From the IMG/VR virus record IMGVR_UViG_3300009151_000088, positions 1 through 55,887 of that record: DNA of 55,887 nucleotides. One strand, given 5' to 3'. Source of the DNA: a virus. Taxonomy: Duplodnaviria > Caudoviricetes. This document shows positions 48,844 through 54,632 of this stretch, one piece after another (the stretch's first letter is position 1; each line of letters starts with the position of its first letter). The notes under the pieces were generated by a model that saw nothing but the letters and a program-made list of their open reading frames with translations, was not told the origin of the DNA and searched no databases. A program made the translations under genes and the position numbers.

Positions 48844-48921
48844 GGGCCGTTAGCTCATGTTGGTTAGAGCAGTGGACTCATAATCCATTGGTGCTGTGTT
48901 CGACTCACAGACGGCCCACCA
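48844..48921 (+). tRNA. tRNA with CAU anticodon, most likely tRNA-Ile2 (lysidine-modified, reads AUA)
   Basis: Acceptor GGGCCGT/ACGGCCC-A-CCA, D arm GCTC/GAGC, anticodon arm GTGGA-CTCATAA-TCCAT, T arm CTGTG-TTCGACT-CACAG. C4-G69 and C5-G68 as in TilS substrates; no initiator features. Confidence 0.93.
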
Positions 48922-51348: not shown

Positions 51349-51513
51349 ATGATTGACCAAAAGTTCAAAGAGGTAGAGCGGGCGGCACAAGAGTTCAAAG
51401 ACGCCCTGTTGAAGTTCCGAAGCTTCTACGATCCGGAGACTGTGGGCATTGATGAGTTTTGCGAGCAGATCGACGAAGTATTGTTTGACATTGACCAAGA
51501 GTTGCAGGAATGA
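51349..51513 (+). CDS. Small acidic early protein (54 aa)
   Basis: ATG 1 nt after the upstream stop, SD GGAG. Confidence 0.7.
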   Translation: MIDQKFKEVERAAQEFKDALLKFRSFYDPETVGIDEFCEQIDEVLFDIDQELQE

Positions 51514-51573
51514 TTGGTTGACAGACTGGTAAAATCACGTTATAATTAACACTTACACACACTGGAGCACACT

Positions 51574-51861
51574 ATGAACATCATGCAAATCAACACTGCC
51601 ATCCTGCAAGGCGGCTTCACTAACACCGAGCTGTCCAGCATCATCGATGCAGTCAAGTTCGCTCGCGCACGTCTTACAGAGATGAATAAGCGAAGCCTGC
51701 GTCTGGGAGACACTGTAGAGTTCACCAGCACCAAGACAGGGCGTACCATGCAGGGCACTGTACAGAAGATCGCTATTAAGTATGTCACAGTGGCAACTAC
51801 AACGGGTCTGTGGAGAGTGCCTGCTAACATGTTGACAATGGTTGAAAAGGAATTCGCATAA
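51574..51861 (+). CDS. Hypothetical early protein with SH3-like C-terminal half (95 aa)
   Basis: Promoter at 51518, SD GGAG. L.LGD.V.F......G.V.KI..K.V.V......WRV....L pattern. Confidence 0.75.
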   Translation: MNIMQINTAILQGGFTNTELSSIIDAVKFARARLTEMNKRSLRLGDTVEFTSTKTGRTMQGTVQKIAIKYVTVATTTGLWRVPANMLTMVEKEFA

Positions 51862-52247
51862 TGACACGCTATTACGACACTTTGGCTGAATACGAACGAG
51901 ACGGCTACACAATTATCGTAGACAAGACCTATGAAGACATACACCCCAGTGACCTCTTTGACGATAGCGAGCATGACGTCAAACAACTATGCCAGGACAT
52001 CGAGTGCGGGAATCTTGACTGGTTCATGCTCCGGGTTCGTGTACTGGTCGAAGGACTCGAGTTGGCTGAAGAGTTCCTCGGCGGATGCTTATACACAGAT
52101 GCCCGCGAAGTCCTTAGTGACGGGTGTGCCGAAGACATCATTGACCAGGCTATGACCCATGCTCAAGGGCGGGTCTATGCATTGAGCCGTAAGTTCACAG
52201 AGTTGAGCTACGCACATGACGCGGTGCCTGCCAATGAGCAATATTAA
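51861..52247 (+). CDS. Hypothetical acidic early protein (128 aa)
   Basis: TAATG overlap with the upstream gene, SD AAGGA. Confidence 0.8.
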   Translation: MTRYYDTLAEYERDGYTIIVDKTYEDIHPSDLFDDSEHDVKQLCQDIECGNLDWFMLRVRVLVEGLELAEEFLGGCLYTDAREVLSDGCAEDIIDQAMTHAQGRVYALSRKFTELSYAHDAVPANEQY

Positions 52248-52476
52248 CAAAGACGAAGTACTACAATGGACAGGGGCTTTCTTTATCACAGCAGGGCACG
52301 TACTCAACACCATGGGCAGTGCCTATCACAAGGACGTTTGGAACATTGCGGCCTTTGCTGTGGGAACTTTGCTGTTTCTAACGTGGACGATCCGTGTGGC
52401 AAATAAGCCACAGATGGCAGTCAACGTTGCGGCTTTAGCCACAATGGCAGTAGGGTTATACAAAGCCTTTGGTTGA
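52234..52476 (+). CDS. Small membrane protein (80 aa, about 3 TM)
   Basis: Three hydrophobic segments. Start re-assigned to ATG 52234. Confidence 0.7.
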   Translation: MSNINKDEVLQWTGAFFITAGHVLNTMGSAYHKDVWNIAAFAVGTLLFLTWTIRVANKPQMAVNVAALATMAVGLYKAFG

Positions 52477-52531
52477 CTGAATGGTAAAACCTTGCTATAA
52501 TTAGAACATGAAACAAACAAAGGAACAAACA

Positions 52532-52672
52532 ATGTCAAAAGAGATGTACGAAATATTGGCCGCGCTGGACAAAGCCGCAGAGCTCATGTTTGCATATGGA
52601 CTCAATGGCTATGCTGAAGATGTTGGCATGATGATGGGCGAGTTGGAAGCAGAAGTCCAAGAAGTAGAGTAA
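52532..52672 (+). CDS. Small acidic protein (46 aa; MSKEMYEILAALDKAAELMFAYG...)
   Basis: Promoter at 52473, SD AAGGA. An in-frame leaderless ATG also exists at 52508. Confidence 0.7.
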   Translation: MSKEMYEILAALDKAAELMFAYGLNGYAEDVGMMMGELEAEVQEVE

Positions 52673-52730
52673 ATTGTAGGGCTATTATAGCAAGGTTGAC
52701 TAAATGGTAAAACCTTGCTATAATAGAAGC

Positions 52731-52940
52731 ATAGTAAGTAATTAGGGGTTACCAACTCCGGTAGGTGGCCTAGATAGTGAGTAACCAGTTGACGGACTGG
52801 CACTACTAGGTTACACGAAAGCAGACCCGCAAGGGCGAGGCACGCCGGATCAAGTTGGCTCGTAATGTGGCTGACAGACAAGTCCGTGGACGGCACGGTA
52901 GGGCAGGATCAAAACTGCGTTCGCTGATCAGACATCCCCT
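52731..52940 (+). ncRNA. Putative ~210-nt structured non-coding RNA with its own early promoter
   Basis: Promoter 52696-52724, no SD or sense ORF before the next promoter. Nested stems: AGGGG/CCCCT, CCAACT/AGTTGG, CCGGT/GCCGG, GTGGCCTAG/CTAGGTTAC, TAGTG/CACTA, CCAGTT/GACTGG, CCC-GCAA-GGG, CCGTG/CACGG and GCAG/CTGC. Confidence 0.72.
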
Positions 52941-52998
52941 GGTTGACAAGACCAAAATTACCTGCTATAATACACACATACACTAACAAGGAGCAGAG

Positions 52999-53265
52999 AT
53001 GAACATTCAAACTATCGAAGCCTATGTGGCACAGAAGAACAAGTGGGCCGCGATCTTCAAAGGTCGTCAAGTGAGCCTGCTCAACAAGGCAGATCGTCAA
53101 AGCATTGCCAACAGCCTAGACGCAGACCTTAGCCCAGAGAACTTGACCTGCGATGGCGAGTTGCGTGGTGCAGAGGTTCGCCAGAAGCAGGCCTACCTGA
53201 TGCGTTGCGTAGAGGAACTGATCAGCATCGATCCTACTGTGTCTTTTTACTCTTTGGAGATCTAA
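52999..53265 (+). CDS. Hypothetical early protein (88 aa)
   Basis: Promoter at 52943, SD AAGGAG. LSPENLTCDGE motif. Confidence 0.8.
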   Translation: MNIQTIEAYVAQKNKWAAIFKGRQVSLLNKADRQSIANSLDADLSPENLTCDGELRGAEVRQKQAYLMRCVEELISIDPTVSFYSLEI

Positions 53266-53445
53266 ATGAAGTACCTTTTTGTGATTGCCTTTGTGATCTT
53301 CTTGATCATCATTGGACCCATTGTAACCATTTGGGCATTGAACACACTGTTCCCTGTATTGGCCATTCCTTACACTATGGAGACCTGGGCGGCTGTGATC
53401 TTGATCAAGGGTCTACTCACTGTACAAGTAACAAAGAAGGATTGA
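53266..53445 (+). CDS. Small membrane protein (59 aa; MKYLFVIAFVIFLIIIGPIVTIWALNTLFP...)
   Basis: Not in the track. ATG abuts the upstream stop, SD GGAG, two hydrophobic segments. Confidence 0.75.
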   Translation: MKYLFVIAFVIFLIIIGPIVTIWALNTLFPVLAIPYTMETWAAVILIKGLLTVQVTKKD

Positions 53446-53446
53446 T

Positions 53447-53659
53447 ATGAAAGCCTATGTAACAACTATCCTGCGACAAGAGATCGAAGTGCCGGAAGGC
53501 ACCAGTCGTGAAGATGTGCTAGAGTTCCTAGCAGAGAACCAAAGCTTCGGTGATGCGTTCTTAGGTGTTAGCGATATGACACAACGGTTCCGCATCGTTG
53601 GCATTACTGTGGTAGAAGAAGAGATTACAGAACTTGGAGAGGAGAGCTACGATGCCTAA
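53447..53659 (+). CDS. Hypothetical acidic protein (70 aa)
   Basis: SD AAGGA, coupled to its neighbours. Confidence 0.75.
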   Translation: MKAYVTTILRQEIEVPEGTSREDVLEFLAENQSFGDAFLGVSDMTQRFRIVGITVVEEEITELGEESYDA

Positions 53660-54230
53660 TTGGTGCAACAACACTGTCACGCTGGAACACGCAGATCCAG
53701 CAATGATTGCTCGTGCTAAGGCCGCGTTCATTAAAGGAGAGTTCCTTGCGGAGTTCATTCCGGTGCCAGAGAGCCTACATATCGTAGCAGGACGAGTGGG
53801 TGACCCGGACGAGCAGAAGAAGCTGGAAGAGGACACAGCCCGCAACCTTGCCACACACGGCTACGGCAACTGGTATGATTTTGCTGTCAACGAATGGGGT
53901 ACCAAGTGGGATGTTGGCGGTGGTGATGGAACCTACAATGATATCGAAGGCGGTATCATACTGGGCTTTGACAGTGCATGGGCTCCTCCTATTCAAGCCT
54001 ATGAGAAACTGTTCTACATGGGCTTCAAGATCCGTGCCATGTATTACGAGCCAGGCATGGCTTTTGCAGGCATCTTTGAAGATGGGCAAGACGAATACTA
54101 CGAGTATGGTAACATGAACAGTGATCAGATTGCTGAAGAACTGCCGCCTGAGTTAGATGAGGCGTTTGGTATCAGCGAGTCAGTCGCTGAGTACGAAGCA
54201 GAGCAGGAGAACGAGGAAGATACCGAATAA
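53652..54230 (+). CDS. DUF1281/YubB (Api92-like) ferredoxin-like-fold protein
   Basis: MPNWC.N, WYD....WGTKWD, FDSAW.PP and YYEPG..F.G. SD GGAGG. Confidence 0.8.
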   Translation: MPNWCNNTVTLEHADPAMIARAKAAFIKGEFLAEFIPVPESLHIVAGRVGDPDEQKKLEEDTARNLATHGYGNWYDFAVNEWGTKWDVGGGDGTYNDIEGGIILGFDSAWAPPIQAYEKLFYMGFKIRAMYYEPGMAFAGIFEDGQDEYYEYGNMNSDQIAEELPPELDEAFGISESVAEYEAEQENEEDTE

Positions 54231-54293
54231 CCCTTCGGTTGACAGGGTTATTGAGTTGTGCTATAATACATGCTTATACACTAAGGAGCAGAG

Positions 54294-54632
54294 ATGTACA
54301 AAGTAAATGCAACGCTAAACACAGGCGGTGGCGGCTATTGGAGCAACACTAAAACAGCAGTAGAGGTCACCCGCCTGCAACTTGCATACACTAACGACGA
54401 ACTAGACTTCGGCGAGTTGCGTGTTTATTTTAACACAGACACATGGGATGTCGATGAGCTGGGTCTCATATACACAGACAAGCAGTTTATGCGAGAGCTT
54501 GTAGAGCTGTTAGCCGCTAAGGGCTTTGACGCTAGCGATGTAAGCTACAGCGAGCAGGGAATGCAAGGGGACAACTATGTGTCCTGCGATGTAGGCGAGT
54601 GCTTTATTAACACGTTTATGCAGAACGCATAA
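54294..54632 (+). CDS. Hypothetical early protein (112 aa)
   Basis: Promoter at 54239, SD AAGGAG. GLIYTD and YSEQGMQG..YVS motifs. Confidence 0.8.
   Translation: MYKVNATLNTGGGGYWSNTKTAVEVTRLQLAYTNDELDFGELRVYFNTDTWDVDELGLIYTDKQFMRELVELLAAKGFDASDVSYSEQGMQGDNYVSCDVGECFINTFMQNA

Follow-up and report, generated by a model that had tools for sequence, protein, structure and literature searches.

A Structured RNA of Freshwater Phages Commonly Encoded beside tRNA-Glu(UUC)

The RNA Locus in the Small-Gene Array

The window, that is, the whole stretch of DNA analysed here, corresponds to an entire IMG/VR record of a virus (55,887 bp), which is linear and rated very incomplete. From ~49.6 kb to the window end, small genes form an array on its plus strand, with a near-consensus promoter before each gene or small group. 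The pattern TTGAC-N15-TGCTATAAT, with up to two mismatches permitted, matches the window 15 times against 1.1 expected, a number reached by none of 100 shuffles. Twelve near-consensus promoters with an extended −10 element lie on the plus strand between 49627 and 55566, and those from 50369 on, except the one preceding the RNA, each head one to four small genes without known function. The sole tRNA of the 56-kb fragment, tRNA-Met(CAU), is found 3.8 kb upstream of the RNA (48844–48921, +).

The promoter of the RNA (52696–52724, +) is of the sigma-70 type with an extended −10 element (TTGACT, 17 nt, TG-n-TATAAT), shows no mismatch to the array pattern and predicts a transcription start at ~52731. 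The first-pass annotation, made from the sequence alone, had read the interval as promoter-driven and its promoter as the only early one lacking a plausible ORF, and both statements hold. All other plus-strand promoters between 50369 and 55538 have an ATG-initiated ORF ~55 nt on, and no plausible ORF is present in the stretch after this promoter (52731–52998, +). With the predicted start as its 5′ limit and the closing stem as its 3′ limit, the RNA would span 52731–52945 (+), as delimited by relatives found with nhmmer, by the alignment described below and by covariation.

Upstream, 52216–52476 (+) encodes a putative membrane protein of 86 aa that matches DUF6552 weakly (E 8.9e-05, under the cut-off). 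Downstream, 52999–53265 (+) encodes an 88-aa protein for which no Pfam family was found and which has at least 586 IMG/VR relatives, many of them on contigs of 100–374 kb. The next gene has a full promoter of its own (52943–52971), and the last bases of the 3′ strand of the RNA's closing stem overlap its −35 element (52943–52948). A scan of 51400–54400 on the plus strand revealed no terminator-like site, including none after the RNA, so that much read-through is expected across the array.

Parts of the stretch occur in six RNA runs. Within 52100–53600, three lake metatranscriptome runs provide exactly matching contigs, which span 52769–53004, 52756–52896 and 52570–52748; such contigs carry no ends, strand or level, and gaps in their cover are uninformative. 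One of them crosses the promoter and another continues into the next gene, which makes them compatible with DNA carry-over or read-through as well. The contigs thus lean slightly towards transcription of the RNA, and the type of its promoter suggests that expression would be early.

A Family of Relatives in Lake Viruses

Relatives were collected in steps of widening reach. A 25-mer from the window RNA retrieved three viral contigs, two further patterns retrieved 42 and 20 IMG/VR stretches, and a degenerate 20-mer retrieved at least 119 lake-metagenome stretches. An nhmmer profile search over the fetched loci gave at least 173 matches, at least 155 of them full-length and at least 111 distinct. 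The covariation alignment, A2, consists of 111 distinct full-length rows from viral and lake metagenome contigs. Identity between the window copy and the other 110 distinct members is 60–83%, and no helix or invariant column of A2 is missing from the window copy. Among the relatives the core is almost invariant and the flanks are unrelated, which sets the boundaries of the element.

The RNA is a single-copy gene in all five records searched for copy number, three of which are complete giant genomes of 352–367 kb. The sole multi-copy case seen is a metagenome contig (L171) with two different tandem copies, at 402–645 and 723–958, separated by a partial tRNA-like match (665–723). Two other RNA-bearing contigs carry pieces that match the betaproteobacterial tmRNA model (L152, 928–1058, E 1.5e-12; L180, 1092–1224, E 1.3e-10), below the gathering threshold since they are cut at the locus end; these pieces hint at freshwater Betaproteobacteria as hosts. 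Among GenBank phages, blastn in distant mode with the 901-base stretch 52400–53300, which contains the RNA, gave no match. No cellular copy was found with a single 20-base pattern among 185,579 bacterial species genomes, where both matching stretches share the pattern alone.

Covariation and the Two-Domain Fold

Folded as a single sequence, the plus strand of 52731–52945 reaches −75.7 kcal/mol (z = −2.06), and equally good folds occur in 3 of 200 shuffles, which suggests a fold only modestly better than chance. The case for structure therefore rests on the relatives. On the 111 rows of A2, the proposed structure has 64 pairs in nine helices; 91.6% of its cells form standard pairs, compared with 31–42% when the 3′ partners are slid by one to three columns, and 49 of the 64 pairs (839 cells) show changes on both sides. 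None of 500 shuffles reached the observed value of any of five covariation measures. An independent mutual-information ranking places the same pairs at the top, with no non-nested pairs outside the variable region. Homologue collection had been named in the first-pass annotation as a check on the RNA, and it yielded covariation across 111 distinct rows.

The same annotation had assigned the RNA to the plus strand, and this is supported by the less favourable z of the minus strand (−1.16) and by conserved G-U pairs, namely 211:281 (GU 81/GC 30), 83:88 (UG 97) and 249:264 (GU 93) of the alignment, which would be A-C mismatches on the minus strand.

The structure is closed by helix P1, formed by TAATTAGGGG (52739–52748) and CCCCTGGTTG (52936–52945). 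Proposed at first as AGGGG/CCCCT, this terminal stem covaries on the 111 relatives, with 12 of the 14 pairs of helix 1 changed on both sides, and its real length in the window is 10 bp. Domain 1 (52752–52858) is bounded by P2 (52752–52755/52855–52858) and P3 (52757–52761/52845–52849) and encloses a long arm and a variable hairpin. Both bounding helices covary, as exemplified by 49:188 (AU 78/GC 32), and the CCAAC/GTTGG and CCGG/CCGG helices proposed for the window RNA are borne out on 111 distinct relatives.

The long arm, P4a–c (52765–52814), corresponds to helices 4 and 5, and its tip loop GACG (52791–52794) is closed by U52790-G52795. Covariation upholds the parts from which the arm had been assembled, GTGGCCTAG/CTAGGTTAC, TAGTG/CACTA and CCAGTT-GACG-GACTGG; helix 5 at the tip is 100% paired with 6/6 pairs changed on both sides, in one example as UA 45, GC 34 and CG 30. 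The arm is followed by the junction CACGAA (52814–52819), in which alignment positions C94, A95, G97, A98 and A99 are invariant in all 111 rows. Next comes the variable hairpin P5 (helix 6; 52821–52841), in the window GC..CCC-GCAA-GGG..GC. The GNRA hairpin singled out by the first reading is real in this copy, but it sits in the variable region of the family, where relatives have other hairpins inserted and only two basal pairs are shared (GC 92/CG 17 and AU 60/CG 40).

The two domains are linked by the invariant TAATGTG (52863–52869), directly preceded by the nearly invariant G52862. The last three bases of the link form P6 with 52933–52935, in the register G52867:U52935, U52868:A52934 and G52869:C52933 that the family keeps (GUG/CAY; GU 81/GC 30). 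Domain 2 (52871–52931) is a three-way junction of helices 7–9 closed by P7 (52871–52877/52924–52931). For this closure the proposed CTGACAG/CTG-A-TCAG pairing covaries, but the ATGT/ACAT register drawn beyond it is broken in 30/111 rows. Both hairpins proposed within the domain are supported by covariation: P8, CCGTG-GACGG-CACGG (52884–52898), is 100% paired with 4/5 pairs changed on both sides, and P9, GCAG-GATCAAAA-CTGC, occupies 52903–52918.

Pairings beyond the nested fold fared differently. A pseudoknot between ACGGACT and AGTCCGT had been suggested, but its C86:G230 pair is broken in 27/111 rows and the same G covaries inside P8. The suggested alternative pairing of GTAACC with GGTTAC is 52–72% paired and shows no real covariation. 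Taken as a set, the alternative pairings stay at the shuffle level (234 of 500 for cells paired). A candidate contact between loops L8 and L9 (GAC/GUU) has two of three pairs that never vary, and its A:U pair is broken in 23/111 rows. For the first GACG-containing loop no covarying partner was found, the 13 rows with a GCCG loop showing no compensating change elsewhere. The first anatomy of the RNA is therefore largely right, with the pseudoknot and the ATGT/ACAT register wrong.

The family is defined by a fold of two domains closed by P1, together with GGUUACC, a pair of GUAGG junctions, two GACG-carrying hairpin loops, CA-GAA and UAAUGUG. Within these elements the GGUU of GGUUACC, both GUAGG, CA-GAA and UAAUGUG are invariant, together with G-CG in the first loop and GACG in the second. 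The twin GACG-containing loops, GUAAUG, CAYGAA and GGUUACC are kept even in four divergent relatives (L040, L022, L050 and L128), despite a rebuilt second domain.

The invariant ATG in UAAUGUG (52865) opens a 20-codon frame, MWLTDKSVDGTVGQDQNCVR, in the window copy, and a short protein gene could be proposed from the presence of this ATG in 111/111 rows and from a frame that runs uninterrupted through the aligned slice (29 codons) in 56/111 rows. We give this proposal next to no credence. In 55/111 rows the frame terminates after 1–27 codons, and in 11/111 the codon after ATG is TGA. Double substitutions that preserve a base pair, for example CCGTG/CACGG to CCATG/CATGG, change two codons at a time, and no Shine-Dalgarno sequence was seen by eye before the ATG of the window copy. 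The interval thus holds no conserved ORF, in keeping with the first reading, the domain 2 frame from 52865 being interrupted in those same 55 rows. Covariation, the lack of an Rfam match (see below) and the lack of a conserved ORF together bear out the original proposal of a structured non-coding RNA gene.

Linkage to tRNA-Glu and the Closing Stem

A tRNA gene lies on the same strand within 80 nt of the core in 103 of 155 distinct contexts, and in 88 of these 103 the adjacent tRNA is tRNA-Glu(UUC). When tRNA-Glu is upstream (59 contexts), 14 nt invariably separate it from the core. The encoded CCA is immediately followed by the 5′ strand of P1, and the pairing of the 3′ strand reaches back over the last bases of the tRNA. 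When tRNA-Glu is downstream (29 contexts), the distance is 12–22 nt. Eleven of the remaining 15 tRNA-adjacent contexts have tRNA-Asp downstream, followed by tRNA-Glu in the loci inspected. The other flank of the RNA varies (Lys, Asn, Ala, Tyr or Ile). Stand-alone copies, with room on both sides and no tRNA within 80 nt, account for 36 contexts, including that of the window. The original placement of the RNA in a gene slot accordingly stands for a promoter-driven, stand-alone copy, but it missed the usual habit of the family, which is residence in tRNA arrays beside tRNA-Glu. The context label changes ~23 times on the RNA tree, which is short and weakly resolved; as a soft test, these changes hint that adjacency to tRNA-Glu is maintained and not merely inherited.

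Median lengths of the closing stem are 22 bp for 101 copies adjacent to a tRNA and 4 bp for the 36 stand-alone copies; the stem of the window copy has 10 bp. As the stem is long where the RNA adjoins a tRNA and short where it stands alone, the long stem is tied to embedding in a precursor and not to the core, which includes only the inner part of P1.

A rival reading is direct binding of tRNA-Glu: in a T-box-like or decoy RNA, the invariant GAA would read the UUC anticodon and thereby sense, sequester or protect the tRNA. The GAA is present in 111/111 rows, at a junction at the base of a ~20-bp arm, and tRNA-Glu(UUC) is the neighbour in those 88 of 103 contexts, on either side of the RNA, with the ~23 label changes on the weakly resolved tree pointing the same way. 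However, in duplex predictions against the anticodon loops of the same locus (71 loci, 68 with tRNA-Glu), tRNA-Glu never ranked first and had a median rank of ~8th of 18. The conserved loops hold other codons too, for example UUC, stand-alone copies exist, and Rfam gave no T-box match. No special likeness of the RNA to any tRNA of the same arrays was found either. Together with the anticodon loop never being the best partner, this makes direct reading of tRNA-Glu a weak rival, which we regard as highly unlikely. Derivation of the RNA from tRNA-Glu was also considered and rejected, as the local alignment scores for tRNA-Glu are among the lowest of the isoacceptors (mean 14.0 versus 13.6–17.0, first 25 arrays).

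A sigma-70-type promoter is recognisable upstream by pattern search in 6 of the 36 stand-alone contexts. In two stand-alone copies (L086 and L084) and ~15 related ones, a conserved upstream block containing ..GGGTTGTAGCCAAGGGATACGAAG.. together with a GTTTGGAGAC hairpin takes the place of such a promoter, and this block may be another element or a different type of promoter. The only recurrent real neighbour is the DUF6552-like small membrane protein, which precedes the RNA in 18 stand-alone contexts, the window included; the output of neighbour-protein clustering was mostly spurious frames over tRNA genes. No informative family was found among the proteins neighbouring the RNA.

In giant-phage copies (L083, L118, L089, L085 and similar ones), the 3′ strand of P1 is repeated ~60 nt upstream of the RNA as TTTCATATAG, with a CCCTG..CAGGG hairpin after the repeat. 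In these copies the 5′ strand of P1 therefore has two alternative partners, an arrangement that could guide co-transcriptional folding or processing. Farther upstream in the same copies, GTTCTTTAAAAA is conserved and may be a phage promoter.

Alternative pairing of this kind would also suit a cis-acting leader or attenuator, similar to a riboswitch, that governs the downstream gene. The absence of a terminator between the RNA and the next cassette and the RNA-library contig that spans the RNA into the next gene agree with such a role. Against it, the content downstream of the RNA varies among tRNA-Glu, tRNA-Asp, tRNA-Lys and unrelated proteins, and the next gene in the window has its own full promoter at 52943–52971. 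The P1-closed structure conceals no ribosome-binding site, and Rfam contains no matching riboswitch family. Regulation in cis is consequently judged very improbable.

Comparison with Known RNA Families

A comparison of the whole window with Rfam 15 at the gathering threshold returned only the tRNA-Met at 48844. With E up to 10, 52600–53050 gave one chance match, outside the RNA. With E up to 5, the loci of 20 relatives gave 88 matches, none on the RNA core; these are flanking tRNAs, tmRNA pieces and weak matches elsewhere. The first-pass annotation had recognised no known family, and the Rfam comparison, with no match in the window RNA or in these 20 loci, agrees. ARAGORN detected no tRNA or tmRNA at the window locus nor on the RNA in relatives, and a conserved CCA after P1 was not found among the relatives.

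Several families were considered individually. A resemblance of the segment AAGUCCG..UAGGGCAGG to E. coli M1 RNA was rejected. Local alignments to two RNase P RNAs (L250 and L251) were equalled by 195 and 212 of 300 shuffles, and neither RF00010 nor RF00011 matched the window RNA or the 20 relatives' loci. A long-range helix of the RNase P P4 type on AAGUCCG was likewise discarded, the AGTCCGT/ACGGACT pairing not being conserved. A T-box leader is contradicted by the lack of an RF00230 match, by the tRNA-Glu anticodon loop never being the best pairing and by the lack of a terminator after the RNA. A Y RNA is contradicted by the absence of TROVE (PF05731) from all five RNA-bearing phage records (three complete; control genomes were positive) and by the lack of a Y RNA match in Rfam, although a Ro protein of the host would be compatible with these results. 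No Rfam match to an HDV-type ribozyme, which has a nested double-pseudoknot fold, was obtained, and the covariation-supported fold consists of two nested domains.

Phage T4 encodes two small stable RNAs of unknown function, rnaC and rnaD (species 1 and 2 RNAs), in its tRNA gene cluster, from which they are freed by precursor processing. Compared by description, the lake-phage RNA is likewise a small phage RNA within a tRNA cluster, but it belongs to a larger family known only from uncultured freshwater phages. ROOL (~580 nt) and GOLLD (~800 nt) differ from it in having no sequence, structure or Rfam match to it; at ~200 nt, with two small domains and a specific linkage to tRNA-Glu, the lake-phage RNA is far below either in size. 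The small size and the lack of an Rfam match tell against an RNA-only multimer, a hypothetical small counterpart of ROOL or GOLLD in which the conserved loops would make intermolecular contacts. In addition, the conserved loops are not self-complementary, save for a GATC in the subgroup of the window copy. Speaking for assembly are the lack of an intramolecular covarying partner for the invariant loops and a shared genomic niche: PMC12286853 describes ROOL and GOLLD as ornate and strongly conserved RNAs of phages and prophages, often situated by tRNA islands and without known function or protein partner, and 103 of 155 contexts place the lake-phage RNA in a tRNA array. According to the same source, cryo-EM shows ROOL and GOLLD as cages assembled by way of kissing loops and A-minor contacts (PMC12286853). 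We consider a multimer of this kind most unlikely for the lake-phage RNA.

The theta ribozymes, as described in PMC10879173, are HDV-like, lie beside tRNAs of gut phages and have a proposed role in tRNA 3′ maturation. By analogy with them, the lake-phage RNA could be a putative self-cleaving RNA that cuts its own 5′ edge and thereby frees the 3′ end of tRNA-Glu. Like theta ribozymes, it abuts a phage tRNA 3′ end, in the 59 contexts where the closing stem begins right after the CCA of tRNA-Glu and always 14 nt from the core. It also has many invariant junction nucleotides, as ribozyme cores do, and the precedent of a tRNA-adjacent phage ribozyme (PMC10879173) adds to the case. Unlike theta ribozymes, its size and two-domain build do not resemble the HDV fold, and no ribozyme family of Rfam 15 matched. 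Copies that precede a tRNA or lie at a distance from any are numerous: 29 are upstream of tRNA-Glu, and 36 contexts, including the window, have no tRNA within 80 nt and hence no substrate for trimming in cis. A catalytic RNA is accordingly judged improbable.

A literature search found no description of this RNA family. It may be among the 8,495 candidate structured RNAs from IMG/VR that are reported in PMC10690425.

Proposed Role

That the locus holds a real structured-RNA gene, belonging to an uncatalogued and widespread family of freshwater phages, is held with great confidence. A fuller statement, which we consider probable on balance, is that a single-copy gene specifies a stable structured RNA of ~200 nt that is processed from arrays and acts in trans with a partner in translation or tRNA metabolism. 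The mode of action taken by itself is put forward tentatively, at rather less than even confidence. The functions offered in the first-pass annotation, a defence decoy, a protein sponge or a ribozyme, are at this stage guesses.

We infer the following course of events. In the window phage, the RNA would be transcribed from its own sigma-70-type promoter inside the small-gene cassette array. In most relatives, many of which are giant uncultured freshwater phages, it would be made within a tRNA-array transcript, beside tRNA-Glu(UUC). There the ~22-bp closing stem may serve as a processing stem of the RNase III type, by analogy with rRNA precursors, in which a duplex of flanking sequences likewise forms in a polycistronic precursor with tRNAs. 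Unlike those precursors, the window copy has a 10-bp stem and its own promoter, and cleavage is proposed here from stem length alone. The mature particle would consist of the two closed domains and would act in trans.

The putative partner, protein or RNA, would belong to the translation or tRNA machinery and would recognise the GACG-carrying loops, the two GUAGG junctions, CA-GAA and UAAUGUG. Over the 111 rows, no intramolecular position covaries with the invariant loops, and the invariant parts persist in the divergent relatives; recognition by an outside partner is favoured for this reason. Judged from the sequences, loops of this description would fit protein and RNA recognition alike.

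A bolder version can be formulated, although it is unlikely. The family would be a new class of translation-takeover RNA coupled to tRNA-Glu, released from a shared precursor and docking through its twin GACG-containing loops on a host component, be it the ribosome, an enzyme acting on tRNA or a defence nuclease directed at tRNA; or else it would be a new class of ribozyme. Either would protect or redirect the tRNA pool.

Complex conserved RNAs without known function are rare and have repeatedly yielded riboswitches, ribozymes and RNA cages. The present family combines at least 111 distinct lake-phage members, a near-invariant core and clean covariation with a tight and previously undescribed linkage to tRNA-Glu(UUC). 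The window copy separates the functional core from precursor processing and provides a minimal construct for biochemistry, since it is stand-alone, promoter-driven and closed by a short stem. If the RNA does act on tRNA-Glu or translation, the contest between phage and host over tRNAs would gain a participant made of RNA.
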